Of a stretch of 64,000 nucleotides of DNA, positions 7,950-37,995 are shown one piece after another. This stretch comes from an uncultured Candidatus Saccharibacteria bacterium (GTDB lineage: Bacteria; Patescibacteriota; Minisyncoccia; Phycocordibacterales; UBA918), in NCBI GenBank assembly GCA_964402035.1, contig CAYOAM010000001.1:307558-371557 (forward strand), in the 5' to 3' direction. The notes below the pieces were generated by a model. That model was not told where the DNA came from. It made no database searches and was given only the letters and a program-made list of their open reading frames with translations. Made by a program: the position numbers and the translations under genes. Position 1 is the first letter of the stretch. Each line of letters opens with the position of its first letter.

Positions 7950-8039
7950 ATACGCACCAGTATACAGCACACAGATATATGTGCACTGTTTATTTCCTGT
8001 TGATCAGTTGCAGCGCAACGGACGCTACCTGAACCTCGT

Positions 8040-19900: not shown

Positions 19901-20620
19901 AGGGATCAAGGTCGTCTCCGGAATAAATTGCAAGTTGCGCGTGCTAATCCATTTAAAATGTCCTGGTGTCTCGGGAGTGATCGTGATCGGAATTTCTTTT
20001 AGCTCCTGCTCACTGAGAGTAGTGAGCGGCACCATTGGTCGATTGAATAGTATCGTGATCTCGGTATCTTCGTGAGATTCACCCTCGGTCGCGGGCAAGA
20101 TGGCGAGTACTTTTGGATCTTCATCAACATAAAAATCTCCGGACATTTCGAGTGCATCCGCTTTGAGATTGACCGCATAGTACGTACCAGTTTTCAGCGG
20201 ATCGGCTGGATCAAAATAGATCATCCCTTCCTCGGTATCAGTAGTCCATGTGCCCTTCACTTCAGGACTAAAGGAGATGCTTGCTTGCGCAACAGCGTCA
20301 GAGACACCGTTAGGTACCTTGACTGGTATGGTTGCGCTCTGTGATATTTTTTCCGGCACAAAAGCAAATACTGTGGAGTATTTTTTTATTGCCACCGCCT
20401 CTTGTCGCTCATGGAGCGCCAATCCCAAAATAGCTATAGCGACGAGTGCAGCAATGCTCGTCATGAGATAGGTGTGTGTATTGAAGTACGACACAAATCG
20501 TTCTTGCACAGTTGGTGTAGCAGTGTTTATCGGGACCGTAGGTATCGGCGTAGAAGAAACCACTTCATTGGGTACAATGTCCGTCGTTGGTTTTGCTACT
20601 ATCCCCTCTTTTTCCTCCAT
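13952..20620 (-). CDS. alpha-2-macroglobulin family protein, thioester-containing, membrane-anchored (2222 aa)
   Basis: YPYGCGEQ thioester motif; N-terminal TM anchor; very large multi-MG-domain architecture typical of bacterial A2M (YfhM-like). Confidence 0.9.
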   Translation of the reverse strand: MEEKEGIVAKPTTDIVPNEVVSSTPIPTVPINTATPTVQERFVSYFNTHTYLMTSIAALVAIAILGLALHERQEAVAIKKYSTVFAFVPEKISQSATIPVKVPNGVSDAVAQASISFSPEVKGTWTTDTEEGMIYFDPADPLKTGTYYAVNLKADALEMSGDFYVDEDPKVLAILPATEGESHEDTEITILFNRPMVPLTTLSEQELKEIPITITPETPGHFKWISTRNLQFIPETTLIPSSSYTVDIGEGLTSVDGLAVAPTTHTFTTRPLRYVSVSEGIVGYRSPIIVDFNQSVDLEKTAEAVMVRNAAGDTVPVNVTYGEQTRYDTKLKKSVTEVDRSKVFVRAKADRHGRKNVWDFETAYEFSIEGAVPLAGNQNLAEVRQQRIAVPSVVAGVRAESDRTSLARPDFLDPQGTLVLTFFENIDKDQSRMYATGLRSVAYADRCKVDQNNETIMLGSECEKEPDTRTLIFSFDPEKIARDLSFDLNLERLMTTDGLRVNQEPIKVPLHSYPTFNILRTLPAQGASGAPLDGMYICTNAPIKDPSEQGLSSYVKASDYIVFGRWSNSQFVSEASPYYKCGAGEFETNIRYGLLPETKYTVNLTLTDVFDARASVDLSFKTEAAKESYVRFHNMQPQYNVTTPDKTTLTYATENMEYVNMNVCRMSPEAFLESTLIAMQNDLGTTPPSGVGCLEDKSVQIPLPKRYWVNNYFQIHLADYFADVRGHYVVTFSHPLLTMNAYMQSGTLRKPQYDRTYVSVTNLVVGKKEIERYEPRYESNDQSQYAQRNIVRDKNIERARNLYWVTESKSMNPVVGASVDQYAGGYNTAFTKGSVGATDPSGVARVVSDTNVAGVVVRRGTDSAIVTDWADQLQYSGAAGNASRTYVYTDRPIYRPGHTVYIRGIDRIGFDGSYEIWNKGNVNLEVRNALGETVYQVPLVMSAFGTFNTSFTLPDDAPLGTYTISGLDAYGWFDVEEYVPSAFAIDAKASKEEYVDRDTMHIDVAAEYYFGTALSEGKVSYSVTAQDYYFDRYTDEYFNFGGGWYYCYECGYGDNFLFRGETTLDEAGKATIERQLDLMSYFSSDDVVGSKLITVSITVRDINGRSVSTQKSFIVHKGDFYIGAKTDDYYTSKNTPTTLRIKTVDTQGAPLAVSNLTRTVRQINWETFKRQEVDGGFYYRSEKRFKDINSENIRTDKDGNWSGSLSFAEEGEYEIRISGKDAGGRDIETTAHMYIYGSQAVAAPPNNSYELDLEVEKTSVDVGDTATLLIKSPYEKAKVLITAERGTVYDYWIADVVGGLYKHSFPVKSSYAPNMYVAALLISPNPEVKFGSVRYDVGVKEHALDVAVSSNKTTYLPGEDVVLSVETKDNLGNPVSAEVSLAVADLSVLALKGNPKKNPLVFFYDGFPLSVSTASNLKNILYEVAIPLGTKGGGGANPDDLSKKKRGLFKDTAYWEASVITDENGKGTVKFTLPDNLTTWQIESLGVTKDTKLGVDYKEFTTKKDLMAVPLKPRFVVPGDTFSLGAQVFNQTDHATTVDVQLDSTSLEFLGDKTDAVKIAAGESKTVYFDVRAPKNKKAGEHIFTFTAKDGTFEDSVEQSISITPNTTFETVATANFTSADTATEYIYIPKEVISNEGGLTIHANATMAVFLTDALNYMVTYPYGCGEQLASALSTIATLKSALKVPNVVGSFENIEYEGVRYDVDTVVAQGLSRIYEVQTFDGGFAYYKGMEPDLFLTTHVALTLLNLQDAGYTIRDGVLDNALTYIEMHAADAYRMYPDDTHKDTVIFAEYVVRRARGTDTALTQYIKTFIADTPYIQERISSKSLTYLAILTYDSYTRSEVSKVYTALLGRIDIDGRGAYLKNPVQFESWGVSQTAITDTALLLKALVVHDDEHPMIGNILRWILAGRDKDGVWGGTHNTFVVVDAMVDYLKWQHESESEFSLRGLLDGAEIFVHNFTPKNIWETFTHVISIDSFEREKLLPLTFERTKRNEQKNNFYYDMALKYFLPVESLPPRDEGITITRDLYAYDAANTKNSTPVSSAQVGDIVRGKITLSIPGVYSHIAVEDIIPAGFEIVNFNLNTEDQSLQNQDGEYGEGQKGYDNDAMGYVVPPDNMFIRAFDRIESTFTSPQTAQIFGAIRDLGGEYKKVARKLWPSHVESHDDRVFLYIDTLSPGVYEYEYFLRALVPGTFQHMPARAEELYFPEVFGRTEGATFTITE

Positions 20621-22774: not shown

Positions 22775-23089
22775 TTATAATCCATCAACAGCAGTTGTTA
22801 CTTTTATGACAATGCCTTCACCATTAAAGTCTATACTGCAGTCAACTCCGTTTTGTAGAAGATATATATGCTTTTCGTCGCTCGAGCGCATATCGATATC
22901 CTGACCATCATTTAGTAACCCACTCATAATATGATCTACTTGATCTCTTTGCATACCCACCTTGATATCGTTACAACGCTGTCGTATATCACTCAACTCT
23001 GGATATACAGTGAGATAAATTATAAATATCAGAAAAATTATTATTGGTAATCCTACTGCCATTCCAATGTACTTAATAATTTTTTTCAT
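22775..23089 (-). CDS. small membrane-anchored protein, candidate immunity protein for orphan rhs toxin tip 3
   Basis: 104 aa, N-terminal TM, AT-rich, starts 3 bp after orphan tip 3 stop. Confidence 0.5.
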   Translation of the reverse strand: MKKIIKYIGMAVGLPIIIFLIFIIYLTVYPELSDIRQRCNDIKVGMQRDQVDHIMSGLLNDGQDIDMRSSDEKHIYLLQNGVDCSIDFNGEGIVIKVTTAVDGL

Positions 23090-23091
23090 AT

Positions 23092-24141
23092 TTAATCTTC
23101 TTCACGTTCACCAGAAAGTGTGTTTTTTAGACTGTTAAGTGCATTTGATAATTGACTCAATACTCTACTAAGAGCAGACGTTGCATTGGGGTCAATCGAC
23201 CTACCAAGACCTGCTGTATAGGCGTTGTCATTCAAGTTTGTTATCGAGTTGTTACCAACTCCAGATTGTGTGAGAAGATTTGTAGCAAAGTTATTACTAT
23301 TATGTTGTCCGCTGACATTCGGATTGCCAAAAACTGAGTATTTACCAACAACTTCTGGTGAACTATTGTAGCTATTTACTATGGATGCTTCAAATTCCTC
23401 CGAGGTCATCCCATCCGGGGGTTCAATAGTTTGAATACCGCTATATTGATCACGAGAAAGTCCAAAATCACTGCCGCGATTAACATCCTTGAATAAGTCC
23501 CCTGTAACAAAATTCTCTGTATACCCTCCTAGTGTGACTCTTGAGTAGTCATCAACCCCATCAATTCTTGGTAGTGCATTTGGATTGTCAGGAGTAATGA
23601 GTACAAACGAATGGGCACCAATTCCTCCAATTACCGCTACATCAATTGGTCTGCTTGCCAACTCTACTTTCTCACCTGTAGGATCAAAAAGTATAAGCGG
23701 ATTATTTCTCGCATACGAATAAGTGTTGAACTGTTGTGGGTCTAGCAAGAATTGATTAGGATTGTCACGACTCGCTGGATCCATCGATATCCATTTTCCA
23801 TAATTGCTGTTCAAGTATCTTGCTCCTGCATATGTAAGCTCAGTCTCAGGATCATAGTCATGCCCTGTATAGCGATTCGTTTGTGTAAAGGAACTGGAAG
23901 TGGTGGTACCTATGAATCGTATCTCATCTAAGTATACCGTCTGGGTGGTGGCAGATTCAATGTTAAGAGCGAGGGTATTGTTGTATGAGGAGATTCCAAG
24001 GTCGGAGAGTGGTATGGATACTTCTTGCCAGGTGTTGGTGAGGTATCCACTTGGGAGGTAGTTTTCAATAACGCGGTTTTGGATCACTTGACCAAGGTGG
24101 TTGGTGAAATAGATATCGAGCTCTCCGGTGTTCGTGCCCAT
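23092..24141 (-). CDS. orphan RHS C-terminal cassette 3 (conserved 160-aa RHS-shell terminus + unique C-terminal toxin domain, unassigned)
   Basis: N-terminal 160 aa ~identical to main RHS residues MGTNTGELDIYF...YSYxRNNP; divergent tail after DPTGE. Confidence 0.75.
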   Translation of the reverse strand: MGTNTGELDIYFTNHLGQVIQNRVIENYLPSGYLTNTWQEVSIPLSDLGISSYNNTLALNIESATTQTVYLDEIRFIGTTTSSSFTQTNRYTGHDYDPETELTYAGARYLNSNYGKWISMDPASRDNPNQFLLDPQQFNTYSYARNNPLILFDPTGEKVELASRPIDVAVIGGIGAHSFVLITPDNPNALPRIDGVDDYSRVTLGGYTENFVTGDLFKDVNRGSDFGLSRDQYSGIQTIEPPDGMTSEEFEASIVNSYNSSPEVVGKYSVFGNPNVSGQHNSNNFATNLLTQSGVGNNSITNLNDNAYTAGLGRSIDPNATSALSRVLSQLSNALNSLKNTLSGEREED

Positions 24142-24400
24142 ATAGAGCCAGAATGAGAGGGTGCTGTATGGGGTGGTGTTGAAGGAGCTATGGGTATATG
24201 AGATACCTCCCCATGGAGATGTGTATTGGGCTTTGAGGCTGTGGGTACCTGCGTATGTGGTACTGGTGGAGTTTGTGAGGGTGACCGTCCATGATCCGTT
24301 GTCCGTCCATGGTGAGGTGAAGGAGTCTGCATAGATGTATGAAGAGATGGTGCTTTGACTTCCCCCTCCTTCACTGAGGCGTTCACTGCCTTGGAGCAGA
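23650..24400 (-). repeat. rhs homology block copy D (shared with 30190-31025)
   Basis: near-identical nucleotide runs extending upstream of the orphan start codon in a disrupted frame. Confidence 0.7.
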
Positions 24401-24484: not shown

Positions 24485-24700
24485 TTACTTGTCTTCGAGT
24501 CTAAATTTTACACCATGCTCATCCTTAGTCGCTCTTTCAAAAGCCAATTTCCACTCTTCCCAGAATGCTGGGTCGGCGGTTCCTCCATCTTGAAGAATTG
24601 ACATTCCGCCTAGCATCCCACCAATTTCACTTGACTTAGTCTTTTGGTAGTAATTTTCTAGGAAATAGAACATTGCTCTGTATGCTTCTTTTTCATTCAT
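24485..24700 (-). CDS. small cytoplasmic protein, candidate immunity protein for orphan tip 2
   Basis: 71 aa, begins 2 bp after orphan tip 2 stop. Confidence 0.45.
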   Translation of the reverse strand: MNEKEAYRAMFYFLENYYQKTKSSEIGGMLGGMSILQDGGTADPAFWEEWKLAFERATKDEHGVKFRLEDK

Positions 24701-24701: not shown

Positions 24702-25766
24702 TTAATCTTGATCTTGATCTGATCTTGGTAATCGTCTTTGATGCACTGGTTCAGGAGCCGACAATCCTGTCTCAGAATTGAATGTTCTCGGAGTGACGTT
24801 TTGCCCTCCGTTTATGATTTGACCGTCTCTAGTCTGCACCCAAGTCTGACTACCATTTTTGTTTAATCTTGCCGACCAGGTATTTCCCCACTTATCAGAG
24901 CCAAGAGTAGTACTTGGATCATCTGCAACATTCTGCAGAAGCTGTCTATTCTGGGGAGTGTCAGCGAGATGCCCCACCTCGTCACGGAATATATGAGATA
25001 ACCTATTTTCAGGTATCAGGTGCCTTATGTCTGGCTTCCCATCCAAAGAACCGATTACAATACTAAATACTATTTTCTGGTTCTCAGAAAGACTATCATA
25101 ATTTTCTTGTCCAAACACATAGTACCCAACAGGGTTGGTACTCTGCGGAGCCAAAGCAGAGTCAAATGTTTCGTCTGGTGTATAGGCGTAGTTTGCGTCA
25201 TCAAGTGCCAAGCTGCCAAATACCGCCAGTGCAATGCTTACCAATATTGGCACTGGATTTTCACCATTATTATCGACGAATACTATCGGGTTGTTTCGAG
25301 AGTAACTATAGCTATTCAACTGTTGCGGGTCTCTCAAAAGAAAATGTTGTCGTATTCCTTTTGCCTCTAGCGAGTTAGCATCTCCAAGTAACAATGACAC
25401 CGGATCCTGCGCAGTGAACCGTCCTGTGTTTCCATCATAATACCTCGCACCCATGTACGTGAGACTTGTTTCTTCGTCATAGTCATGCCCGGTATATCGA
25501 TTGCTCTGTGTAAAGGAACTGGAAGTGGTGGTACCTATGAATCGTATCTCATCTAAGTATACCGTCTGGGTGGTGGCAGATTCAATGTTAAGAGCGAGGG
25601 TATTGTTGTATGAGGAGATTCCAAGGTCGGAGAGTGGTATGGATACTTCTTGCCAGGTGTTGGTGAGGTATCCACTTGGGAGGTAGTTTTCAATAACGCG
25701 GTTTTGGATCACTTGACCAAGGTGGTTGGTGAAATAGATATCGAGCTCTCCGGTGTTCGTGCCCAT
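24702..25766 (-). CDS. orphan RHS C-terminal cassette 2 (unique tail with a hydrophobic helix and HxxD-containing domain, unassigned)
   Basis: N-terminal 165 aa match main RHS incl. RYYDGNTGRFTAQDPV; junction VDNNGE replaces DPxGL. Confidence 0.75.
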   Translation of the reverse strand: MGTNTGELDIYFTNHLGQVIQNRVIENYLPSGYLTNTWQEVSIPLSDLGISSYNNTLALNIESATTQTVYLDEIRFIGTTTSSSFTQSNRYTGHDYDEETSLTYMGARYYDGNTGRFTAQDPVSLLLGDANSLEAKGIRQHFLLRDPQQLNSYSYSRNNPIVFVDNNGENPVPILVSIALAVFGSLALDDANYAYTPDETFDSALAPQSTNPVGYYVFGQENYDSLSENQKIVFSIVIGSLDGKPDIRHLIPENRLSHIFRDEVGHLADTPQNRQLLQNVADDPSTTLGSDKWGNTWSARLNKNGSQTWVQTRDGQIINGGQNVTPRTFNSETGLSAPEPVHQRRLPRSDQDQD

Positions 25767-26165
25767 ATAGAGCCAGAATGAGAGGGTGCTGTATGGGGTG
25801 GTGTTGAAGGAGCTATGGGTATATGAGATACCTCCCCATGGAGATGTGTATTGGGCTTTGAGGCTGTGGGTACCTGCGTATGTGGTACTGGTGGAGTTTG
25901 TGAGGGTGACCGTCCATGAGCCTGCGTCTGTCCATGGAGACTGCCAGCTGTCGGTGTATAGGTATGACGATGTGGTGGTGTCTCCTCCCCCTTCATCGAG
26001 ACGTTGGCTGCCGAAGGGATAGTATGCGAGGAGGGTGGTGAGGTATCCATCATCATCGGTTTGTGCTTGGGTGCTGCCGAGGTGGTCGAGGTGGGTGTGA
26101 TAGGTGCTTGCAGATCCGCCTGTGCCAGAGACTGATGCTATGAGGGTGTCACCTGCGTAGAGAAA
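25290..26165 (-). repeat. rhs homology block copy C
   Basis: ~0.88 kb near-identical to 30190-31025 including ~400 bp upstream of the orphan ATG (ends at AGDTLIASV-equivalent). Confidence 0.7.
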
Positions 26166-26211: not shown

Positions 26212-27504
26212 TTATGAAGGAGACGGAATTGTTTCATTTTTTGAACTTTCTACAATAAACTTTGCACGTTCGTAAAGCTCATCATAAGTAATGATTTCAA
26301 TATTTCTGGAATCACGCCGAAAAAGTTCAAAGGTTTTTGCTTTGATTAAAGCTTCTTTATTTTCTCCTCCAAACTGCCTTGAATGACCAATAACCAAAAT
26401 GGCTTTTGGATCATAAGATTTTTGTTTAATTGGTTTCCCTATATCATCAAAGTGACTTGAAGGATCTGACTCTGCCTTAACTTGCAGACTAGCTTTTTGC
26501 TCCAGGATTTGCGACAACGCAGACGTTAAATCATCTGATAATTTCCAAGCATTTGAACGGTTTTTGTCTCTGCCATACAATTCCGTATCAGGTTTTTTCA
26601 ACTCAACTAAAACAGTAAACTTATTACACCCTAATAAGAAATCAGAAACTGCAGCTTCCTTACCAGACATATCGACTCCAGATACAGTCACCTCTCTTTG
26701 TAAAATAGAGAGGAATCTATAATCTAAACCATAACCAAAAATCCAATTATTTTCTTCAAAAAAATGTTGCCACGCAGCTTCTGCTCCAAGCTGTTTAATG
26801 TTGTTCTCTGTTTTATATTTATCGACATATCCATCTTCCTCTAATAATTTCCTAAATATTTCCAGCTTACTTTTTCGGTAGCCAATATTAACAATATCGT
26901 TTGAAGTAATTATTCCACTACTAAGTAGCTCCTCAATAATTTTGTGACCATCCTCTCTCATTAGTAGAGTAGTAATCTTCTTTTTTGTATCCTCATCAAT
27001 TGTAGGCAAGTTGTCTGTATTGAGTGAAATTTTTCGTTCGTTTATACTTCCAAGATCTAATGCAGATATCATCTGCATATAGCCGATTATTTGTTTAAAA
27101 AAACCATATGAGAATGTGATTTGTTCTTCTTGGGGTTCGTACCCAGTTTTCTTGTAGTACTTAAAACGTTTGACAGAAATACTTTTGATTTCGTTACTTT
27201 CTTTGATGAACGTAAAGGTTGTTTTAATCTTATTTCTTACTCGCTCGGGGTGCTCAAACTCAATTGCATCAGGAACTCCATTATCATCACTGGAGACGAC
27301 GGTAAAAAACTTTCCAGCACCATTTTTAAATTGATGCGTATATAGAGTATCTCGAACGTAATTATCAACGATTTCTGATTCAGTAGATTCTTCGTATTTA
27401 TGTAAACCCATATTAGTACCTAGTATGCACCGATAAATTAGACTTTCAAAGTCTATCATTAACGTCTTACGCCGTATCGCAAAAGCACTGTTACTCGAAG
27501 GCAT
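26212..27504 (-). CDS. Shedu-like DUF4263-type PD-(D/E)xK nuclease (putative anti-phage defence protein)
   Basis: QREV...SDFLLG...VLVELKKP E/D/ExK motif set, C-terminal ILVIGHSR...EIITYDELYERA; ~33% GC, embedded in rhs cassette array. Confidence 0.45.
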   Translation of the reverse strand: MPSSNSAFAIRRKTLMIDFESLIYRCILGTNMGLHKYEESTESEIVDNYVRDTLYTHQFKNGAGKFFTVVSSDDNGVPDAIEFEHPERVRNKIKTTFTFIKESNEIKSISVKRFKYYKKTGYEPQEEQITFSYGFFKQIIGYMQMISALDLGSINERKISLNTDNLPTIDEDTKKKITTLLMREDGHKIIEELLSSGIITSNDIVNIGYRKSKLEIFRKLLEEDGYVDKYKTENNIKQLGAEAAWQHFFEENNWIFGYGLDYRFLSILQREVTVSGVDMSGKEAAVSDFLLGCNKFTVLVELKKPDTELYGRDKNRSNAWKLSDDLTSALSQILEQKASLQVKAESDPSSHFDDIGKPIKQKSYDPKAILVIGHSRQFGGENKEALIKAKTFELFRRDSRNIEIITYDELYERAKFIVESSKNETIPSPS

Positions 27505-27575: not shown

Positions 27576-27938
27576 CTAGAGTAGATCAATTTCTGCTACA
27601 AGTGTTAACTCAAGATCTTCTACTTCAGCACTGGTCATTGCTTTTTGTTTATTTAAGAAACCTTCCTTGATAAGTAAGGGAACTATTCTTAGTATTGTAT
27701 CTCTACTCACATCCTTAATTATAAATTCATGTACATCAATACTTGAAAAGCCTTTTCTTTCTATCGAATCCTGTACTTCCTGAATGTGGCGATACGGCTG
27801 AATAGCAGACACATTGTAAAAAGAACCATCCAACTGGAGATAAAAGTCTCTCAAATTTTTTTGTTCGACCTCCCACTCAATTGCCGCGTCAGTATAACCA
27901 GTTGTATTCTTATGAAAGTATATCTTTAATTTTTTCAT
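27576..27938 (-). CDS. candidate immunity protein for orphan tip 1
   Basis: 120 aa, AT-rich, begins 3 bp after orphan tip 1 stop. Confidence 0.5.
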   Translation of the reverse strand: MKKLKIYFHKNTTGYTDAAIEWEVEQKNLRDFYLQLDGSFYNVSAIQPYRHIQEVQDSIERKGFSSIDVHEFIIKDVSRDTILRIVPLLIKEGFLNKQKAMTSAEVEDLELTLVAEIDLL

Positions 27939-27941: not shown

Positions 27942-28985
27942 TCATCCTTCTATTTTTTTAGTCTTAATCTTTTCTAGCTCCGCTTGGAACTGCTTTGGCG
28001 TCAAGTTGCCGTTTGGTACTATTTCGTAATGATTTGGATTATCTCCTCGTTGGATAATTTTGAGAGTATCAGGTAGTGAAGTTATTTGATTGGCACCACC
28101 AAATTTCCCAAGACTTGAAGCGTCTGTATTTACAGAAATACCTCTAATATCAGCTACAAAACCATCAGCATCAATCTTGATTTCGTTTGGTTTTATACTG
28201 AATAGATTATTCCCTGAACCACCCCTAAACACAGGCACTAAGTTATCTCCATTCCTAACCAAAGAACCCACATTCGCCTTATTGCCAAACGCCATGAAAG
28301 CCAACTGTAGCGAGAGCTTCTGTGAAGGACTCATGTTGTCATAACCCGGCACCAAAGGATTAGTTCCCGATGGAACATTTGTTAGGTCGGTCGATTCAGC
28401 CGGCGAATACGCATAATTAACATCAGTTGCAAAATTAACAATACAAGCAAATGCAATCGCGAGTCCTAGCGGTAGGATATCACCTCCAGGGTCATACACA
28501 ATCATTGGATTATTACGTCCGTAGCTATATGTATTAAGCTGTTGCGGGTCTCTAAGTAAGAGTTCCAACGGTCGTCCATACTGTGATTCCCAAGTACGAG
28601 CTCCTAGATCAAGATTTGCCGGATCCATCGATATCCATTTTCCATAATTGCTGTTCAAGTATCTTGCTCCTGCATATGTAAGCTCAGTCTCAGGATCATA
28701 GTCATGCCCGGTATATCGATTGCTCTGTGTAAAAGAACTGGAAGTGGTGGTACCTATGAATCGTATCTCATCTAAGTATACCGTCTGTGCAGTAGCAGAT
28801 TCAATGTTAAGAGCAAGAGTGTTGTTGTATGCACTGATACCAAGGTCAGAGAGTGGTATCGAGACCTGTTGCCAGGTGTTGGTCTCAAAACCGAGAGGAA
28901 GATAGTCTTCAATGACACGATTTTGGATGACTTGACCAAGGTGATTGGTGAAGTATATATCAAGCTCTCCGGTGTTCGTGCCCAT
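27942..28985 (-). CDS. orphan RHS C-terminal cassette 1 (unique tail; FRGG...E pattern faintly ART-like, unassigned)
   Basis: N-terminal 153 aa match main RHS; tail diverges after YDPGGD. Confidence 0.75.
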   Translation of the reverse strand: MGTNTGELDIYFTNHLGQVIQNRVIEDYLPLGFETNTWQQVSIPLSDLGISAYNNTLALNIESATAQTVYLDEIRFIGTTTSSSFTQSNRYTGHDYDPETELTYAGARYLNSNYGKWISMDPANLDLGARTWESQYGRPLELLLRDPQQLNTYSYGRNNPMIVYDPGGDILPLGLAIAFACIVNFATDVNYAYSPAESTDLTNVPSGTNPLVPGYDNMSPSQKLSLQLAFMAFGNKANVGSLVRNGDNLVPVFRGGSGNNLFSIKPNEIKIDADGFVADIRGISVNTDASSLGKFGGANQITSLPDTLKIIQRGDNPNHYEIVPNGNLTPKQFQAELEKIKTKKIEG

Positions 28986-29085
28986 ATAGAGCCAGAATGA
29001 GAGGGTGCTGTATGGAGTGGTGTTGAAGGATGATGGGTGTGTATATGAGATACCTCCCCATGGAGACGTGTATTGGGCTTTGAGG
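28520..29085 (-). repeat. rhs homology block copy B
   Basis: 28986-29085 identical to 30611-30710 upstream of orphan ATG; ends abruptly at GATTAATCGTGACTG. Confidence 0.7.
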
Positions 29086-29089
29086 CCGA

Positions 29090-29521
29090 TTAATCGTGAC
29101 TGTCACCTTTCTTTCTTGCTGCCCCAAGTATTATCATACTTAAACATATTGGGGGAACTAAAATTATCAATAAGTTAATGATCCAATAGTCTGAATTGGG
29201 GAGTTTGATCAGGTCGCCAGAGAAAAACAAAACTGCATATACTGCACTAAAAATAACAATTAAGTTTGAATTTACTTTATTAGGAGCTTCAATCAATGAA
29301 ATTAATTTGAATATTACTAAAAAAATTAACGAACTTACAGATGAGATACAAAAGAATATAAATAGTAAATATGCTGTTAATTTAATTACGTTAGCATCTA
29401 CGACTCCATCTAACATATAAGAATACAAACCCGTATAGTAATGAATTGCCATAAAGACAGGACATGCCACTACCGCAGCGATCCAGCCACCTATAAAAGT
29501 ATTTAATGAATTTTTTCTCAC
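29090..29521 (-). CDS. polytopic (4-TM) membrane protein, candidate cognate immunity protein of the main RHS toxin
   Basis: 143 aa, 4 hydrophobic helices, ~30% GC, 17 bp downstream of RHS stop. Confidence 0.55.
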   Translation of the reverse strand: MRKNSLNTFIGGWIAAVVACPVFMAIHYYTGLYSYMLDGVVDANVIKLTAYLLFIFFCISSVSSLIFLVIFKLISLIEAPNKVNSNLIVIFSAVYAVLFFSGDLIKLPNSDYWIINLLIILVPPICLSMIILGAARKKGDSHD

Positions 29522-29538: not shown

Positions 29539-32500
29539 TTAGTAATCAACATTTACATTGATTGGTTTGTTCCAAGTATTGTTAAACCATTTATGGAACG
29601 AGTTATTATTACTGGTCAAATCAATACATCCTGCCGAACCCGCGGTCCAGCCTCCATGAATATAATATCCAGTATCTCCGCTTGAATTACTTAATTCAGT
29701 CCGTTGGGTTCCCCAAGCGGCAGGACCTCCTGGCCAAGGCCCAATTTTTCCCCCTATGAGTGGTATATTTTGAGTGATTCCGCTTACTAGTGAGCCAGCT
29801 TTCCTTGCACCAGAAACGTCAGCCCAATTCTGTGTTTTGTTAGGGTCGGCACTCCATATTCCCTCTGGAATTGGATCATTCCCACTATTCCCAGAAACCC
29901 CTTCCCAACTAAGCCCAGGCATAGCAATACCGTACGAGGTATCGTATGCAGAGAGAGTCTTATTATCAAAATTTAATTCAAGATTCTGGCCAGGAAGAAT
30001 AATATAATTTCCGGCTTTAATTTTGTCTGGGTTGTTTATTCCATTAGCTTTAGCAATTTGACTGATTCCTAGTGATGTTCCATACTTTTCGTTTATCTGC
30101 TTTTGGATATGCGTAAGTGTATCTCCTTTTTCAATTTCTCCTGAATCAACATTAAATAATCCAAGTGGGTCTATAAATCTGAGAGGGTTATTTCTGCTAT
30201 ATGCATAGTAATTAAATTGTTGAGGGTCGTACAGAAATGTTTCTGGACTCTGCTGACTCACTGGATCCTGCGCAGTGAACCGTCCTGTGCTTCCATCATA
30301 ATACCGTGCCCCCATGTACGTGAGACTTGTCTCTTCGTCATACTGGTGCCCTGTATATCGATTCGTTTGTGTAAAGGAACTGGAGGTTGTGGTACCCACA
30401 AATCGTATCTCATCTAAGTATACCGTCTGGGTGGTAGCAGATTCAATGTTGAGTGCAAGGGTGTTGTTGTATGCACTGATACCAAGGTCTGAGAGTGGTA
30501 TAGATACCTGTTGCCAGGTGTTGGTCTCAAAACCGAGAGGAAGATAGTCTTCAATGACACGATTTTGGATGACTTGACCAAGGTGATTGGTGAAGTATAT
30601 ATCAAGCTCTCCGGTGTTCGTGCCCATATAGAGCCAGAATGAGAGGGTGCTGTATGGAGTGGTGTTGAAGGATGATGGGTGTGTATATGAGATACCTCCC
30701 CATGGAGACGTGTATTGGGCTTTGAGGCTGTGGGTACCTGCCGATACTGGAGTGGTGGCGTTTGAGAGGGTGACACTCCACGAACCTCCATCGGTCCATG
30801 GTGAAGTGAGAGAGTCTGCATAGAGGTATGAAGATGTGGTGGTGTCTCCTCCCCCTTCATCGAGACGTTGGCTGCCGAAGGGATAGTATGCGAGGAGGGT
30901 GGTGAGGTATCCGTCGGTGTCGGTTTGTGCTTGGGTGCTGCCGAGGTGATCGAGGTGAGTGTGGTATGTGCTTGCAGATCCGCCTGTGCCAGAGACTGAT
31001 GCTATGAGGGTGTCACCTGCATAAATATGTTTGGTTGCAGATGAGCCATACTCATAGAGATTTGATGGATAGAATGTCGTGCCAGAAGGACCGGTCTTTT
31101 GCGTACGTTGTCCGGTGTGGTCGTATGCATAGGTGACGGTCGTGCCACTTGATACACTTTGCGTGAGGCGATTTTGGTAGTTCCAGGTGTTCGCAAGACC
31201 TGCGCTAGTTGACGCAAGGTTTCCGTTGGTATCGTATGCATAGGTAACTCCGTTGATACTCGTTGCCGCATGAGGGTTCGCATAATTGCTTCCGGTATTG
31301 CCGCTATAGGTGTATGCACCAACATCTGATTTTGAAGTGATGTTGCCGATAGCGTTGTATACGTATGTCTGCGTGTATGGTGTGCTGCTTGCGCCGGTTG
31401 TCGAGGCACTGGTGAGGCGGTAGAGGTCATCGTATGTGTATGTGGTGGTTGCAGCACCATGGGTATCGGAGCGATCCACGATTTGGGTTATGTTCCCGAC
31501 GGCGTCATAGGTGTATGAGAGATTTTGGACTGTCGCTGCATAGTATGGATACGTGAGTGTCGTTGAAGTACCACTTCCGGTACTTGAAGCAAGTACAAAT
31601 GTGGAAGTTGTGGTACTCCATGCACCTTCTGCATTCCAAATGTCCCAAAACTTGATGCGCCAGTAGAATGTGGTTGACGAAGCAAGTGCTGATCCTGCGT
31701 ATGCGATATCAGGACTGCGGCCACCTTGTGCCGTGGTACTCGATAGCGTTGTTTTTGTTGAATCCCAATATGAGGAGGTGAAAGCGGATGAAGTTGAAAC
31801 TTGTATCTGGTATGAAGCTGCAGTATCGGTTGCATTGCTGTCGTTAAAGATTGCAGAAAACTCAGGGGTGCCATCGGTCACACTCGTCGGATTTGTTTGT
31901 CCTTCGGCAAGGAGAGATGATGGTGCAGTCGGTGCAGAGTTGGTAGCAGATGCAGTATAGGTAGCGTATATAGATACTTTGCGGGCGAAATATGTTGGTG
32001 AAGTTATTGGGTTTGACCAATCAGGATAGGTGATCGATTTAAGCGCGTATTGGTTTGTTGATCCTGTATCCCAATAGACTGTTGCAGAGCTGTCGTGTCC
32101 CTGCCAGAGCCAGTAGGTGGTGCCAGACGCAAGACTATAACTTGGCATGGTCATATCTACCCATGATGCAGTCGTGCCCACCCCACCGGTGACGCTTGAG
32201 GTCGCGAGCGGAGCGTTTGGTGCACCACTCGAATCAGAATAAAGTGCTGCGATTTTGTTCATGGTGCCTGCTGTCGTCTTTTTGGTATACGCAGTTATCT
32301 TGGAGAGCGTACCGTTTTCACTGTTCATAGAAAACTTTGAACCTATGTAGTTCCAGGTGTCAGCATTGGTGCCACCGATCGTACCATAGCCGAAGGTGGG
32401 ATCTACGCGTACCGGATAGGTTGCGGTATCTAGATACTCTTGCGGGACAATCACGCGCAGTGCCCCTTTCTCATACGAGAGTGATCCCCAGACCGCCACA

Positions 32501-35500
32501 CCTTTTGCGTCAACAATCTTCGGGCGGAAAATATGAAAGACTTTTCCCGATTTAAATTCCCCATCTTTCTTTTCTTTGTGGTACACGGCGTATGAACCCA
32601 CAATATTTTCCGGGCGACGTACAACCACGACACCTTCTGCGTCTGTACATGCAGTTTCGGTGCATGAGAGTTTTTCTTCGAAAGTTTCTTCGGTCAGAGG
32701 TGGCTGGTACAAAAAGTCGAGATCGTCGGTTCCTGAAAGTGTAAAGGTGAATGTATTTTTTTGTGGTTTCTCATCGAGGACCACTTCAATCTCAAAACCA
32801 CCCGCCTCCATACCTTCTCGGGGAGCAAGTGGGTACGCCTCAACCGATTCGCTTCCCCCATCCCATTCCACAACGTTTCGTAATGGAGAATAATATGGGA
32901 CCGCAAACGGAAGTTCGTAACGAACAGAAAGATCAACCGCGCCGCTCCAGGTATTTAGGCGTACTTCTGGCAGTGATTTGTCGACGTGCGCAGTGTATGT
33001 ATCAAACCTGGTATCGGCATCAGAGATAAATTGATACGTACGTGCAGTCTCGCGAGGAGTTTTCTGTGAAAGTCCATCTGGTATAAACAGTATTTCTTCC
33101 TTCAGTACCGGCTCGAGTGCTGAGTCTGTCGTCGTCGCCGTGGTGGTTCCCAATAGATCTCTTTGTACGGTTGTAGTGGTGGCAATCTCATTGGCAGTAT
33201 CTTCATGCAGTACGGTGTCGGTTGTAGTAGCATCGAGGACTTCAGGTGTCGTGGTAGGCACTGCTATGGACGGAGACTCTGCGTCGGTGAGGGAGTTTTC
33301 CAACACCTGCATTAAATCTTCAAAGTCAGGTGCGTCAGTGGTGTGTACTGCTTCATTTTCCATCTCAACCGCTCCCATAGTTTCGGTAGCATCAGCTAAG
33401 AGTGCTGCTTCCACACCACGCAGTTCATCTCCGCCTCCCCCTGTAGGTGGAGGCACCGACGTCACGATACTGGAAAGACGATAGAGCGCGTTTGCATCGT
33501 ATGTCTTTGTGGTACTTGCTCCATTGCCACGCTGTTCATAGACCACCAGTCCGGTAGGTGCATAATCAATATCGCTGATAAGTGACTGCCACGACCCACC
33601 GCTCTCTTTTTGCTGTACTTTTTCAAGCTGTCCTGCGCTGTTGTATATATATGCCACGCGTGATAGATCAGGAAAGACAATCTCGGTTTGCTGTCCTTGT
33701 CGATCGTAATCATAGGAAATGACAAAGGTCGAGGTTGCAATGGTCGTTGTCGCAAAATCTGGGAGGCTATTTGGGGTATACGCGTATGAAGTCGTTGCAG
33801 CTCCTAGACTCACTGCTTGGCACAACTGCATTTTGCCATTTGTGCAGGTGTCATAGGTATAGGTTATTTCTGTACCTGTTCCTCCGGTGTAGTTTTCTGT
33901 GAGCGGACGGTTAAGATCGTCGTATGTGCGCACTATCACCTGTCCCTTAGGATCAGTGGTGGTCGCGACATTTCCTGCAGCATCGTATGCAAAACTCCAG
34001 TTGCCAAAGGTGTTATCACTTGCTGCATGGAGATCTTGCATAGTGAGACGACGAGAGAGACCGTCATAGGTAATGGCACGTACATTCCCTAATGCGTCGG
34101 TGATTGTTGCAAGGTTGTCGTTGGTCGTCCACAGATATGCGGTCGCGTACGTACTGGTGCTGTTGTATTCAGTAGTGGTCGAGAGGCGACCAAATGCATC
34201 ATACGAGAACATCTTCTTATTGCCGATCGGATCAAAAACTGTTTCAGACCACTGGTCGTAGACCGTTGCGGTTGTGCCCACAGCAGTTGTGGAAGTTGCC
34301 ATGCGTCCAAGCGCATCATACACATAGGTTGTATACAGATTGCTTTGCGAAGTCGACGCAGTACGTGCAGAGCCAGTATCAAAGTACGGCAATGATTCCT
34401 TTTCCAAGAGTCCATTATTTCCATACACAAGATCACGTACAGCGTACTGATTGGAGTCCTCCGCCTCGACACGTGTCTGCATTTTCCTGCCAAATCCATC
34501 TGCATACTCGTATGTGTCCGTTGTCGTAGCGGTATTTAAATATGACCTTGTGTTAACCGACACCGCACCTTGTGTGTCAGTATAGGTGTATGTGGTTTTA
34601 GTAACTGGTGTTCCGGTCTGTGGGTCGGGAATCTTTTCTTCTTTCGGTCGATCAAATGCATCATAGACGATAACGGATGTACGCCCGTTTGGATCGGTCG
34701 AAGTACTTACCTTTCCACTTGAGTAATCATATGTCTGTATCGTGGTGTACCCCAATGGGTTTGTGGTAGTTGCAGGATACAAATTTAGTGCGTCATAGGT
34801 ATACGATGTAGCCTTATCACGAGCATCTTTATACTGTGTCACTAGCCCGTAACTGTTGTATGTTTTTTCTTCATCAATGTACGTACTGCCACTCACCCAC
34901 GATTCACGCTTGGTGAGATTGCCGTCGGTTACATTACCAAGGCTTTGATTGTCATAATACAAACGATCTTCTTTTATCTTGGTTGCTGCATAGTTGAGCA
35001 ATCGTTGCGATGATGGCAACCCTACGATGTACGCTGTGGTATTTGTGGCATAGGTATAGGCGACCGTGCGCTTGTCCGTATCTGAGTCAACATAGGTACC
35101 ATCCATAGAGGCATCTACACTTCCCCACTCAGTAATCGATGTTGTATTTCCATAGCTGTCATATGTAAATGACTTAGCCAGATCACGATGATCGCCATCA
35201 CCATCGTATGAAAGCACCACCTCACTAAGCGGAGAGACAAAAGTTGCATTATCGCCTCGATCAGCCTCAAGCCAATTGGTCCATTGAATATTGTATAGAT
35301 TGTTCGTACGATCAAATAAGTCAACGCGATATGATAGACCGATACGCGCAATGGCGTCTCCAGACTCATTACTGCTGGTACTATTGCCGTTCCCTTGGTG
35401 CTGATAGGTAACGGACCGCGAGAGTCCACTATTCTTCTCAACCGCACCAAAGCCAGCAAATTTTCTGTCGCGCGGACTGCTTGAGGAAAAATAAAAATCA

Positions 35501-37995
35501 CCGTCCTTATATGAGTACGTATCTGTCCATGATTCCCCAACTATCGGCTTATATGTGGTGGTCGCTACCGTCTGTAGCAACATCGGTAGGTGTGGGTTTG
35601 CAACAGAAGACGTACTTAGTCGATACTCTGGACTACCTTTGTACTCAAAATGTACCTCTCCACCTCTCTTATCAGTGGCGGTAGCAAGCATATCGGACAC
35701 CATACCACTGCCTATGTATACTGTATTCTCTAAGTAAGCATCGTAATGATCTTTGCGACTCACTAATATATCAGTGACACCGTCTCCATTTGTATCAGCA
35801 AGCCGTGCTCCACTATCATGTGCGTTTTCTCGCACAAACGGGACAGGAATTGAATACGTAAGATCTTCAGTCCAGCCATTACCTCTGTGTAGATACACCT
35901 TATTAATCACGGTACTACCATAGTGATCTGTTCTATATATAAGAATATCAACAAGACCATCACCATTTACATCTCCTAATCGTGAGCCAGAATCAATACT
36001 GTTTTCATATACAAATGGAACTGGGATCGTCCATGATGTATCCTGTGTCCAACCTGAACCGGTATTAAAATATACCTTGTTGGCCAATGTGCTTCCATTG
36101 TGATCAGTTCGGAAAATCAGGATGTCCGTGAGACCATCGCCATTAACATCAGCGAGACGCGCACCTGAATCACTTGTATTTGAATAAATAAATGGCTCTG
36201 GTAACACCCATGAAGCATTCAGACTCCATCCAGAACCGGTATTGAGATATACTTTGTTTACAAGAGTGGATCCATTGTGATCTGTGCGATACATTAAAAT
36301 ATCAGTGAGCCCATCTCCATTGGCGTCTGCGAGACGCGCACCAAGATCATATGGACCTTCTTGAAATATTTCTGGGATTATCCAAGACATATCTAAATTC
36401 CAGCTATCACCATCATTGATGTATACATTTTTGTACTCGGTCGCAGGAGACCCAAGAATTTTAAAACTTTGGAGAAGGTCAGCAAGACCATCACCATTTA
36501 CATCAACCAAATTAAATCCTTTGTCCTCACCATTTTCATAGAACAGCTCTGGCACAATAAATGTTGAGCTTGCAATCCAATCTGCTCCTGTGTTTAGGTA
36601 AACACCCTGTTGGGTGGAGCCTCCAGCCCCTGCCTCTTCGTAGCTCTGGACGATGTCAAGTAATGCATCACCGTTAACGTCAGCAAGGTAGGAACCTGCG
36701 CTGTACGTGTTATTTCTTACAAATGGCGCTGGTACTGTAGTAGAAGCTTGTACCCATGCATTACTAGATGTGCTATACGTAAAAGAGGTGTCAGGTAGCG
36801 TAGAGGAAGCAGCACTATTTAGACCAATTTCTGTTATTGTTTTTAGCAAAGAACGCCTATCATTATTTGCTGCACTATAGCTCAAATTGTATTCATGCAC
36901 TTTTGTACCACTTATAAATGTCTGTATTTTATCGACACGATACGTAGTATCAATCGGAAACTTCGAAACATGCGAGCGTGTCAAGTCGTCACGAGTTTCT
37001 CTCACAAAACGTATTTCAAAAGGACCGTCAGTGGTCCCACTGCCTGTGTAAACGATAGTGTCGGGATATATCTGACCTGCTTCCTTGTGGTACGAGTACT
37101 TGATGTAATTATCATTGGTGTCACGGATTTCTGAAACCATCCATGCGTAAACCTCACTTGTTGAGGAAGCGTTATCTTTTCGTGCATTGGTAGTGCTGCC
37201 GAAAGTGTAGACCAACCCTTGCTTGTCGGTTGCCATCCATACATTGTTGGTATACACATATTTCAAAAAGGATCCCGCATCTACCTTAGGACGATATTCA
37301 GTAGTAGACCCTACTTGAACAAGTTCACTGGAGAATGAAGAATAAAATGTTGAACTAGTACTTACGTATAGATTTTCTACGCCATGTTTGTTAAGTCGTT
37401 TTATAAACGGTATATCAATACTCCATCCAAATCCCACCCAATCAAACTCAGAAACAGCGGCACTATTGTATGAGAGGTGTATTGCAGGCGTACGATCATT
37501 TCTTCCCGGGGGAAAGGACAATGGGTATTCAAATGACAGAGATCCATCGAGCGGACTAACTAGTAGCAGATCTGTCACGAAACTACGAGTATTGCTCATT
37601 CCCTGACTTTCACTACCAGCCTCTCCACTACCCATGGCTAACGACTGTGTAATTGGCGGTTCATCTCCTATCGTTTCCACTCCATCTGATACTGAAATCT
37701 CGCTATCACCAACAGTAGAATCAGTAGCTTTCTTTGTTTTCGTTGCATCTGGCACAAGCGCTTTTACTTCGCCTGATTGAAGCAACACAGTTTCAGTCTG
37801 CGAGTTGGCTACTACTCCTGTAGCGCCACCCGCAAGAGAAGTTTGCTGTTCAGTCACTGCTATCTGTTCATCTGCAAAGACATGCACCAATGGTTGAGTC
37901 AACAAAAAAACCGCGAGGGTAAAACTCGCGGTTTTTTTCGACAAAGCAAATACAGTATTTCTTAAGAAAAGACGCCCTAAACGTCTACGATGCAT
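29539..37995 (-). CDS. giant fused TcB/TcC-like RHS (YD-repeat) polymorphic toxin with LysM + L,D-transpeptidase-fold C-terminal toxin domain (2818 aa)
   Basis: signal peptide; SpvB-like N-terminal region; 5 tandem FG-GAP-like repeats (LADVNGDGLTDIL...NTGSGW); many YD repeats (YxYDxxGR); RHS core end PxxxxDPLGL; C-terminus GDTLTHIQKQ...AGNYIILP (LysM) and YYIHGGWTAGSAGCIDL (His...GC(I)xL as in YkuD). Confidence 0.9.
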   Translation of the reverse strand: MHRRRLGRLFLRNTVFALSKKTASFTLAVFLLTQPLVHVFADEQIAVTEQQTSLAGGATGVVANSQTETVLLQSGEVKALVPDATKTKKATDSTVGDSEISVSDGVETIGDEPPITQSLAMGSGEAGSESQGMSNTRSFVTDLLLVSPLDGSLSFEYPLSFPPGRNDRTPAIHLSYNSAAVSEFDWVGFGWSIDIPFIKRLNKHGVENLYVSTSSTFYSSFSSELVQVGSTTEYRPKVDAGSFLKYVYTNNVWMATDKQGLVYTFGSTTNARKDNASSTSEVYAWMVSEIRDTNDNYIKYSYHKEAGQIYPDTIVYTGSGTTDGPFEIRFVRETRDDLTRSHVSKFPIDTTYRVDKIQTFISGTKVHEYNLSYSAANNDRRSLLKTITEIGLNSAASSTLPDTSFTYSTSSNAWVQASTTVPAPFVRNNTYSAGSYLADVNGDALLDIVQSYEEAGAGGSTQQGVYLNTGADWIASSTFIVPELFYENGEDKGFNLVDVNGDGLADLLQSFKILGSPATEYKNVYINDGDSWNLDMSWIIPEIFQEGPYDLGARLADANGDGLTDILMYRTDHNGSTLVNKVYLNTGSGWSLNASWVLPEPFIYSNTSDSGARLADVNGDGLTDILIFRTDHNGSTLANKVYFNTGSGWTQDTSWTIPVPFVYENSIDSGSRLGDVNGDGLVDILIYRTDHYGSTVINKVYLHRGNGWTEDLTYSIPVPFVRENAHDSGARLADTNGDGVTDILVSRKDHYDAYLENTVYIGSGMVSDMLATATDKRGGEVHFEYKGSPEYRLSTSSVANPHLPMLLQTVATTTYKPIVGESWTDTYSYKDGDFYFSSSSPRDRKFAGFGAVEKNSGLSRSVTYQHQGNGNSTSSNESGDAIARIGLSYRVDLFDRTNNLYNIQWTNWLEADRGDNATFVSPLSEVVLSYDGDGDHRDLAKSFTYDSYGNTTSITEWGSVDASMDGTYVDSDTDKRTVAYTYATNTTAYIVGLPSSQRLLNYAATKIKEDRLYYDNQSLGNVTDGNLTKRESWVSGSTYIDEEKTYNSYGLVTQYKDARDKATSYTYDALNLYPATTTNPLGYTTIQTYDYSSGKVSTSTDPNGRTSVIVYDAFDRPKEEKIPDPQTGTPVTKTTYTYTDTQGAVSVNTRSYLNTATTTDTYEYADGFGRKMQTRVEAEDSNQYAVRDLVYGNNGLLEKESLPYFDTGSARTASTSQSNLYTTYVYDALGRMATSTTAVGTTATVYDQWSETVFDPIGNKKMFSYDAFGRLSTTTEYNSTSTYATAYLWTTNDNLATITDALGNVRAITYDGLSRRLTMQDLHAASDNTFGNWSFAYDAAGNVATTTDPKGQVIVRTYDDLNRPLTENYTGGTGTEITYTYDTCTNGKMQLCQAVSLGAATTSYAYTPNSLPDFATTTIATSTFVISYDYDRQGQQTEIVFPDLSRVAYIYNSAGQLEKVQQKESGGSWQSLISDIDYAPTGLVVYEQRGNGASTTKTYDANALYRLSSIVTSVPPPTGGGGDELRGVEAALLADATETMGAVEMENEAVHTTDAPDFEDLMQVLENSLTDAESPSIAVPTTTPEVLDATTTDTVLHEDTANEIATTTTVQRDLLGTTTATTTDSALEPVLKEEILFIPDGLSQKTPRETARTYQFISDADTRFDTYTAHVDKSLPEVRLNTWSGAVDLSVRYELPFAVPYYSPLRNVVEWDGGSESVEAYPLAPREGMEAGGFEIEVVLDEKPQKNTFTFTLSGTDDLDFLYQPPLTEETFEEKLSCTETACTDAEGVVVVRRPENIVGSYAVYHKEKKDGEFKSGKVFHIFRPKIVDAKGVAVWGSLSYEKGALRVIVPQEYLDTATYPVRVDPTFGYGTIGGTNADTWNYIGSKFSMNSENGTLSKITAYTKKTTAGTMNKIAALYSDSSGAPNAPLATSSVTGGVGTTASWVDMTMPSYSLASGTTYWLWQGHDSSATVYWDTGSTNQYALKSITYPDWSNPITSPTYFARKVSIYATYTASATNSAPTAPSSLLAEGQTNPTSVTDGTPEFSAIFNDSNATDTAASYQIQVSTSSAFTSSYWDSTKTTLSSTTAQGGRSPDIAYAGSALASSTTFYWRIKFWDIWNAEGAWSTTTSTFVLASSTGSGTSTTLTYPYYAATVQNLSYTYDAVGNITQIVDRSDTHGAATTTYTYDDLYRLTSASTTGASSTPYTQTYVYNAIGNITSKSDVGAYTYSGNTGSNYANPHAATSINGVTYAYDTNGNLASTSAGLANTWNYQNRLTQSVSSGTTVTYAYDHTGQRTQKTGPSGTTFYPSNLYEYGSSATKHIYAGDTLIASVSGTGGSASTYHTHLDHLGSTQAQTDTDGYLTTLLAYYPFGSQRLDEGGGDTTTSSYLYADSLTSPWTDGGSWSVTLSNATTPVSAGTHSLKAQYTSPWGGISYTHPSSFNTTPYSTLSFWLYMGTNTGELDIYFTNHLGQVIQNRVIEDYLPLGFETNTWQQVSIPLSDLGISAYNNTLALNIESATTQTVYLDEIRFVGTTTSSSFTQTNRYTGHQYDEETSLTYMGARYYDGSTGRFTAQDPVSQQSPETFLYDPQQFNYYAYSRNNPLRFIDPLGLFNVDSGEIEKGDTLTHIQKQINEKYGTSLGISQIAKANGINNPDKIKAGNYIILPGQNLELNFDNKTLSAYDTSYGIAMPGLSWEGVSGNSGNDPIPEGIWSADPNKTQNWADVSGARKAGSLVSGITQNIPLIGGKIGPWPGGPAAWGTQRTELSNSSGDTGYYIHGGWTAGSAGCIDLTSNNNSFHKWFNNTWNKPINVNVDY
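30190..31025 (-). repeat. rhs homology block copy A (inside main RHS gene; source of orphan homology)
   Basis: shared with three orphan cassettes. Confidence 0.75.

Follow-up and report, generated by a model that had tools for sequence, protein, structure and literature searches.

RHS polymorphic-toxin gene and its C-terminal tip

The 64-kb stretch of contig CAYOAM010000001.1 analysed here, referred to as a whole as the window, carries on its minus strand a gene for a 2818-aa RHS polymorphic-toxin protein, and our subject is the C-terminal tip of that protein (Table 1). From N to C terminus, the translated open reading frame (ORF) is composed of a signal-peptide-like segment, an SpvB domain, FG-GAP repeats, RHS repeats, a Thr-rich/Ig (Ig_Rha78A_N) insert, a second run of RHS repeats, an insert resembling a carbohydrate-binding module (CBM), the end of the RHS core, a LysM domain and a Tlde1-like tip. 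Over the full-length protein, Pfam scores were 75.5 bits for RHS_repeat, 63.4 for FG-GAP_3, 56.4 for SpvB, 47.9 for Ig_Rha78A_N and 22.6 for LysM. By eye, the N-terminus displays a basic n-region, a hydrophobic core and a VFA-type cleavage context, and it looks like a Sec signal peptide. The Ig_Rha78A_N domain (residues 2026–2131) and a long Thr-rich linker are located within the RHS body, upstream of the CBM-like insert. This latter beta-sandwich segment, just ahead of the RHS core end (approximately 30290..30590 on the minus strand, residues ~2470–2570), was recognized from weak SGBP_B_XBD matches (E 5e-4 to 5e-3) in the orphan ORFs described below, whose ATG (MGTNTGELDIYF) falls within it.

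The RHS core terminates in RNNPLRFIDPLGL (residues 2601–2613). RHS repeats, a PxxxxDPxGL core end and a variable tip beyond it, the marks of an RHS polymorphic toxin, are all present. A partial match to the NCBIfam Rhs_assc_core profile ends at the DPLGL boundary, and the three orphan cassettes of the window, as well as relatives elsewhere, all diverge directly past the equivalent DPxG. This agrees with an earlier reading of the same DNA (the sequence-only reading), which had drawn a tip past the RHS core boundary. The tip has 205 residues and forms the C-terminal end of the protein. By analogy with RHS/TcC proteins, DPLGL would be expected to act as an autoproteolytic boundary that frees it. 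The tail and its partner gene are AT-richer (GC content of 0.41 and 0.31, respectively) than the RHS body (0.465).

The strings and ORFs quoted in the sequence-only reading (the RHS ORF, the core boundary, the LysM segment, the His/Cys motif and ORF 29090..29521) are all located where it had put them. Its region end, 30185, lies one base off the codon boundary, since PLRFIDPLGL runs from 30186, which is immaterial. It had interpreted the tip as a LysM domain followed by a YkuD-like L,D-transpeptidase, and the LysM half was borne out: the tail scores 26.4–26.9 bits against a Pfam gathering cutoff of 20.9 (E 5e-6), and the LysM-like segment GDTLTHIQ...ILPGQ (residues 2624–2670) is predicted to adopt the beta-alpha-alpha-beta fold. 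A PDB sequence search using the tail itself returned LysM proteins only. Further downstream, YYIHGGWTAGSAGCIDL (residues 2777–2793) holds a His-x9-Cys arrangement, in which the catalytic candidates are His2780 (codon 29656..29658), Cys2790 (codon 29626..29628) and Ser2787. Residues of the domain are numbered below along the tail, where H167 and C177 stand for His2780 and Cys2790 of the full protein.

Table 1. Features of the RHS locus, in window coordinates.
Feature	Coordinates	Strand	Basis
RHS polymorphic-toxin gene	29539..37995	-	ORF translation; Pfam; NCBIfam
Signal-peptide-like segment, residues 1–41, MHRRRLGRLFLRN...FTLAVFLLTQPLVHVFA/DEQ (cut before DEQ)	37873..37995	-	By eye from translation
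SpvB/TcB-type N-terminal domain, residues 148–308	37072..37554	-	Pfam PF03534, 56.4 bits, E 3.6e-15
DPLGL, RHS core end, residues 2609–2613	30157..30171	-	Sequence; Rhs_assc_core profile end; tip divergence
LysM, tail residues 8–55 (protein residues 2621–2668)	29992..30135	-	Pfam PF01476
Tlde1-like catalytic domain (DUF2778 clade, YkuD fold), 148 aa, tail residues 58–205 (protein residues 2671–2818)	29542..29985	-	Profiles, relatives, AlphaFold2 model
Candidate cognate immunity gene, 143 aa, GTG start	29090..29521	-	18 nt past RHS stop; transmembrane prediction; neighbourhood
Orphan RHS cassette 1	27942..29086	-	RHS fragment with 94% DNA identity to 30338-30728, then different tip; candidate immunity ORF 27576..27938
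Orphan RHS cassette 2	24702..26136	-	RHS fragment with 87% identity to 30259-31000, then different tip; small ORF 24485..24700 downstream
Orphan RHS cassette 3	23092..24390	-	RHS fragment with 84% identity to 30338-30876, then different tip; small ORF 22775..23089 downstream

Family and fold of the catalytic domain

Relatives of the tip are scarce by direct comparison: a single-sequence homology search over 5.8 billion clusters returned only three. One of them, P0002 (45% identity), matches PF10908 (Tlde1_dom) at 43.7 bits, above the cutoff of 30.1. A catalytic-domain profile built from four sequences then recovered 898 proteins at E ≤ 0.01, with PF10908 on most among the 120 matches listed. 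In an alignment of 97 relatives, PF10908 is found in 87 and PF03734 (YkuD) additionally in 38, together with wall-binding modules of several kinds (LysM in 18, PG_binding_1 in 5, PG_binding_3 in 4). When compared by hhalign with eight proteins named DUF2778, Tlde1 or L,D-transpeptidase in NCBI and JGI records, the match reached 99.9% (E 4e-36).

His167, Gly173, Gly176, Cys177 and Asp179 are invariant across the 97 relatives, and Ser174 is nearly so. Taken with the LysM score and the profile matches, this agreement far exceeds what chance would produce. The best PDB match of the profile is Tlde1a, a weak one (E 0.054), whose H121/S128/G130/C131 align with H167/S174/G176/C177 and whose W93/G94/R97 align with W148/G149/R152. 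The gap between His and Cys, nine residues, is equal in both proteins (H121/C131 in Tlde1a), and the tail carries the H-x(n)-(S/T)-x-G-C-h pattern with the short spacing typical of DUF2778. A shorter His-Cys spacing than in YkuD has been described for the DUF2778 clade (bioRxiv 10.1101/2020.02.18.954545). An AlphaFold model from the single sequence was unusable (predicted local distance difference test, pLDDT, of 33); the AlphaFold2 model of the tail was therefore rebuilt on the 97-sequence alignment, with a pLDDT of 94 and a predicted template modelling score (pTM) of 0.87. The predicted fold is a YkuD beta-sandwich that resembles Tlde1a most and has an insert in the place of the capping subdomain. 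Superposition on Tlde1a lends indirect support to the expected proximity of His and Cys.

Given the PF10908 match of P0002, its presence in 87 of the 97 relatives, the hhalign result and Tlde1a as top PDB match, sequence comparison indicates that the catalytic domain is a diverged member of the Tlde1/DUF2778 clade, outside the YkuD-type enzymes. The L,D-transpeptidase assignment made before thus stands as to the fold and fails as to the family. YkuD-type enzymes space His and Cys by 14–17 residues, and the tail has neither that spacing nor an above-cutoff PF03734 match (18.4–18.8 bits against 23.4). The profile and structure check proposed with that reading came out positive for LysM and for the fold model, and below cutoff for PF03734.

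The same reading had taken LysM plus YkuD as the architecture of Bacillus subtilis YkuD (PDB 1Y7M/2MTZ), a kinship that we do not retain. The nine-residue spacing and the low PF03734 score make the likeness probably convergent, and the LysM fusion is probably independent of that in YkuD, since relatives of the window domain use LysM, PG_binding_1 or PG_binding_3. B. subtilis YkuD belongs to another catalytic clade, with a longer His-Cys spacing, and is a housekeeping enzyme, whereas the window domain is a predicted toxin tip.

Candidate immunity gene and small membrane partners

Past the RHS stop codon lies the small membrane protein that had been proposed as a four-transmembrane (TM) partner, and this description was supported: Kyte-Doolittle analysis of ORF 29090..29521 gives four to five hydrophobic segments, and a topology of four TM segments agrees with the positive-inside rule. 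It has no Pfam or NCBIfam match, and only five homologues were found by HMMER among 1.84 billion representatives (E 4e-9 to 8.5e-4, 30–35% identity). Because these homologues align from residue 3–8, we favour the 143-aa form with a GTG start over the 108-aa database annotation. Three of the five have a contig on record, and all three are near tips of the same LysM-Tlde1 subclade as that of the window. P0247 (contig L090) starts 8 nt past an RHS tip with LysM and GYYMHGG...GSAGCIDL, and P0248 (L091) is directly downstream of a same-subclade RHS tip in NCBI assembly GCA_001817265.1. This conserved gene neighbourhood suggests that the 143-aa protein is probably the cognate immunity protein, i.e., the antidote. 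The family alignment reveals a motif, H-x3-G-x-Y-S-x2-L-D-G, just past TM1; given that both termini are basic and that there are four TM segments, the loop that bears it would face outward, to the wall side.

The third homologue, P0246, is separated from its RHS tip by two genes (L087:2703-3993, also in L088 and L089). One is a 93-aa ORF with three TM segments, and the other encodes a canonical YkuD L,D-transpeptidase (PF03734) of 158 aa that is anchored in the membrane. The presence of such a housekeeping-type enzyme in the cassette might reflect a resistance or repair function.

Small membrane proteins are the usual company of this domain. Of 64 related toxin ORFs of the GSAGCID clade, 46 are followed by a protein no longer than 220 aa in which two or more TM segments are predicted, against a baseline of 5.3% for ORFs of 80–220 aa in the same loci, a count drawn from fetched, phylogenetically non-independent loci and restricted to toxin ORFs having a downstream ORF. 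One family with three TM segments makes up 16–18 of these partners (loci L005–L081, e.g., L007:2626-2934, L009:10431-10772, L027:10535-10849, L023:10377-10709). It shares a conserved PExY..GWxYxS..Y loop past TM1, ranges over Bacteroidota, Alpha- and Deltaproteobacteria and Myxococcota, and has no Pfam match. Neither hhalign between this family and the immunity family of the window nor BLASTP between the window candidate and that of contig L001 detected any relationship. There are at least two unrelated small membrane partner families, neither of them in Pfam.

Orphan cassettes and mobility of the tip

Downstream of the immunity candidate, three ORFs (27942..28985, 24702..25766 and 23092..24141) begin with ~150 residues near-identical to residues ~2495–2613 of the RHS protein, as established by protein alignment and, at the DNA level, by blastn. 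The three tips that follow match no Pfam or NCBIfam family. ORF 26212..27504 was considered as a fourth cassette and rejected, being unrelated to RHS: this 430-aa minus-strand ORF among the orphan cassettes carries SduA_C (Shedu-type nuclease, 98.9 bits), and the same layout exists on contig L082.

The tip under study is also found on other RHS proteins (contigs L001, L084, L087–91 and L007). In one metagenomic locus (L084:1-9289), an SpvB/FG-GAP/RHS gene that has Ntox44 as its main tip is followed by an orphan LysM-Tlde1-like cassette, and in another (L085:3546-10738) the module is part of an extended array whose other tips are Lipase_3-like and Peptidase_M91-like. These orphan copies indicate that the LysM-Tlde1-like module circulates among RHS loci.

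Proposed mechanism and alternative readings

In the reading we propose, a classical RHS polymorphic-toxin locus of a Patescibacteria-like bacterium has this feature as its toxin tip, working through Sec export, autocleavage, LysM-targeted Tlde1-like editing of peptidoglycan stem peptides and membrane immunity, and we give this reading a probability of roughly 0.74. The analysis shows which domains are present, their fold, the conservation of the catalytic residues, the layout of the locus and the conserved toxin/membrane-protein neighbourhood, whereas export, self-cleavage, the precise reaction, the organism targeted and the way immunity works are inferred. The 2818-aa protein would be exported by Sec, as its N-terminus suggests, and a TcB/TcC-like RHS shell would form and cleave itself past DPLGL, as is characteristic of the family. 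The freed tip may then dock through LysM on the glycan strands of peptidoglycan, where, on the model of Salmonella Tlde1a, the Tlde1-family Cys/His enzyme could attack the L,D bond that joins residue 3 of the stem peptide to D-Ala4. L,D-carboxypeptidase action, replacement of D-Ala4 by other D-amino acids, or both, would leave fewer usable cross-link donors and weaken the wall of a competitor (or host). The producer would be shielded by the adjacent 143-aa protein with about four TM segments, whose loop past TM1 is predicted to face the wall, and tips may be exchanged by recombination with the three downstream orphan cassettes. Peptidoglycan as the target, which the sequence-only reading had predicted, is in our view right, with the enzymatic activity a predicted one.

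Several observations weigh against this proposal. PF10908 is not detected in the window tail by Pfam even at E ≤ 10, and the PF03734 score is below its cutoff, as described above. P0246 is the third gene downstream of its tip rather than the first. At four near-invariant positions the window departs from the 97-sequence consensus (G94D, W154E, R161D and S165Y). Position 161, Asp in the window and Arg in 90 of the 97 sequences, corresponds to R115 of Tlde1a, and position 154 to R99, a predicted binder of meso-diaminopimelic acid (mDAP) (PMC9638812). At position 175, the equivalent of Tlde1a H129, Ala is found in 95 of 97 sequences, i.e., across the GSAGCID clade. Compared with Tlde1a, the window domain therefore has Ala for His129, Asp for Arg115 and Glu for Arg99, and it lacks the second His of (S/T)HGC and the Arg115 that characterize Tlde1. 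With four near-invariant residues lost and His129 replaced, the substrate or the chemistry may differ from that of Tlde1a. Additionally, the likeness of the genome to that of a member of Patescibacteria, or candidate phyla radiation (CPR), which in itself speaks for the proposal, is drawn from the best named matches of one protein, DnaB: "Patescibacteria group bacterium" (80% identity), Candidatus Kaiserbacteria (72% and 70%) and Candidatus Paceibacterota (69%). The reason for an RHS shell around a wall-acting enzyme in a monoderm is not evident either.

The divergent residues bear on two other readings. The domain could keep the Tlde1 fold with another activity or target: L,D-endopeptidase action, cleavage of protein-peptidoglycan links (as DpaA does), or, at the surface of the membrane, an attack on peptidoglycan that is nascent or lipid-linked. 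The subclade is without equivalents of R115, of H129 and of R99, the last of which is predicted to bind mDAP in Tlde1a (PMC9638812), and membrane-embedded immunity candidates are the rule in the clade, which a substrate at the membrane surface would explain. We nevertheless hold this reading to be improbable, because no solved structure is closer than that of Tlde1 and no other family assignment is significant, because conservation covers the catalytic H/S/G/C as well as positions Trp148 and Arg152, and because nothing positive speaks for the alternative substrates. That the tip is a decaying, inactive relic, as the four lost positions and the sub-threshold Pfam scores might be taken to mean, is hardly credible: the RTEL and GYYIHGG signatures are common to at least seven divergent sequences (P0001, P0003, L084, L087, L090, L091 and the window), all of which retain H, S, G, C and D and each of which retains a partner gene, and the window ORF is intact. 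Substitutions shared in this way, with the catalytic residues kept, point to a coherent conserved subclade and not to decay.

It is very improbable, for its part, that the tip is no toxin but a self-acting wall enzyme or anchor, a YkuD-like LysM+LDT module by which the producer would remodel its own peptidoglycan or fasten the RHS protein to it. The module sits past the DPxGL boundary, exactly at the position of the exchangeable tip, and is followed by three orphan cassettes whose tips differ and which have small ORFs downstream; its domain belongs to a toxin clade, it is accompanied by a small partner gene that is conserved, and in other loci it stands as an orphan beside toxin cassettes of the lipase and M91 types. 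The frame of a type VI secretion system (T6SS) given by the sequence-only reading could not be kept. Rhs-DUF2778 fusions beside PAAR genes do exist (bioRxiv 10.1101/2020.02.18.954545). However, Pfam scans of 45 window ORFs detected nothing from a T6SS, whether PAAR, VgrG, Hcp or another family, the N-terminus is signal-peptide-like and continues into SpvB/FG-GAP instead of PAAR, and DnaB groups with Patescibacteria. CPR bacteria are monoderm and, to our knowledge, neither a T6SS nor an outer membrane is known in Patescibacteria. A Sec-exported RHS protein of the TcB/TcC-like or WapA-like kind thus fits better, and a T6SS-delivered Rhs-Tlde1 effector in the manner of Proteobacteria has a negligible chance of being correct.

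We venture a more speculative reading, which has some chance of being right and is still doubtful. The GSAGCID branch may act where membrane and wall meet, on peptidoglycan that is nascent or linked to lipid, and may be countered by tiny polytopic membrane proteins through their conserved extracytoplasmic loop. The RTEL/GYYIHGG subclade of Patescibacteria, without the near-invariant Trp154 and Arg161, might be tuned to another stem-peptide chemistry and used by an episymbiont on the wall of its host, not only against kin. We know of no description of loop-mediated immunity by polytopic membrane proteins for peptidoglycan-targeting effectors.

Comparison with known systems

Tlde1a of Salmonella Typhimurium acts as an L,D-carboxypeptidase and also exchanges D-amino acids, and it needs H121 and C131 for its toxicity (bioRxiv 10.1101/2020.02.18.954545; PMC9638812). 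Its identity to the window domain is 18–22% (Tlde1a/Tldi1a structures, PDB 7UMA, 7UO3 and 7UO8). Tlde1a is a free 173-aa cargo effector, whereas the window domain is fused to LysM and an RHS shell. Immunity in Salmonella is conferred by a soluble periplasmic DUF2195 protein, Tldi1a (bioRxiv 10.1101/2020.02.18.954545), unlike the polytopic membrane candidate of the window, and the T6SS with which that pair operates has no counterpart among the ORFs scanned.

Delivery of an L,D-transpeptidase-fold domain by RHS had been regarded as uncommon. This does not hold: Rhs-DUF2778 fusions occur in 11% of the genomes of one Tlde1 subfamily, beside PAAR genes, e.g., in Shigella sonnei (bioRxiv 10.1101/2020.02.18.954545). 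Since such fusions are already documented, RHS delivery is not the unusual part of the locus. The Tae7/Tlde1c fusion WP_052983304.1 of S. sonnei likewise has a DUF2778/Tlde1 tip at the C terminus of an RHS protein; fusions of this family are proteobacterial, linked to PAAR/T6SS, and have no reported LysM (bioRxiv 10.1101/2020.02.18.954545). The window protein, in contrast, is led by a signal peptide-like segment and fronted by SpvB/FG-GAP, bears LysM, and comes from a CPR-like genome with a membrane immunity candidate. Its distinctive points are the CPR-like host, with no T6SS gene among about 45 ORFs scanned, the signal-peptide-like start and SpvB/FG-GAP front, the three orphan tip cassettes downstream, the loss of near-invariant residues and a rare membrane immunity candidate.

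Other likenesses lie outside the Tlde1 literature. The window locus resembles that of B. subtilis WapA, a Sec-dependent RHS/YD toxin of monoderms: a signal peptide, or a segment like one, leads the RHS protein, the toxin at the C terminus can be exchanged, and orphan cassettes are present together with a neighbouring immunity gene, in the window a candidate one. The nuclease tips of WapA have their site of action in the cytoplasm, whereas the window tip is predicted to act on the wall. The order SpvB, FG-GAP, RHS is that of TcB/TcC, but Tc cocoons need a TcA injector, and no TcA-like gene was found in the window.

Tlde1-type toxins have so far been studied only as proteobacterial T6SS cargo with soluble periplasmic immunity, and the superfamily was reported from alpha-, beta- and gammaproteobacteria (bioRxiv 10.1101/2020.02.18.954545). 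With this locus and the relatives gathered here, the family reaches into RHS proteins from CPR-like bacteria as well as from Bacteroidota and Acidobacteriota; fusion to peptidoglycan-binding modules recurs in it, and its usual partners are very small membrane proteins that are missing from domain databases. We consider membrane-embedded immunity the most interesting point of the locus; the understanding of RHS and Tlde1 proteins is otherwise unchanged in principle. At annotation level, a CPR genome (Saccharibacteria) had already been noted to encode an RHS/YD polymorphic toxin (PMC6031116). Full-text literature searches returned nothing pairing Tlde1 with a LysM fusion and nothing joining Patescibacteria, Rhs and toxin in such a way. 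CPR bacteria spend their lives on the surface of other cells and are difficult to culture; for them, the locus offers a concrete candidate for a wall-directed weapon and its antidote.

Genomic neighbourhood

Scans of the whole 64 kb found no tRNA (ARAGORN) and no Rfam family at gathering score, and the Pfam scans found no type VII secretion system family in 45 window ORFs. The remainder of the window is ordinary chromosome, with genes for PGI, a ROK kinase, TyrRS, CysRS, DnaB, RecR, L9, TruB, CorA, an S41 protease and a PBP1C-like protein. Two further proteins with PG_binding_1 are predicted to be wall-associated, one of 628 aa (47934..49820, minus strand) and one of 440 aa with an additional DUF4398 (6648..7970, minus strand). 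A 2222-aa bacterial alpha-2-macroglobulin (MG2, A2M_BRD, A2M, TED and bMG10; 13952..20620, minus strand) is encoded near the PBP1C-like gene (Transgly, Transpeptidase and BiPBP_C; 9364..11424, plus strand), a pairing best known from diderms and found here in a Patescibacteria-like genome.

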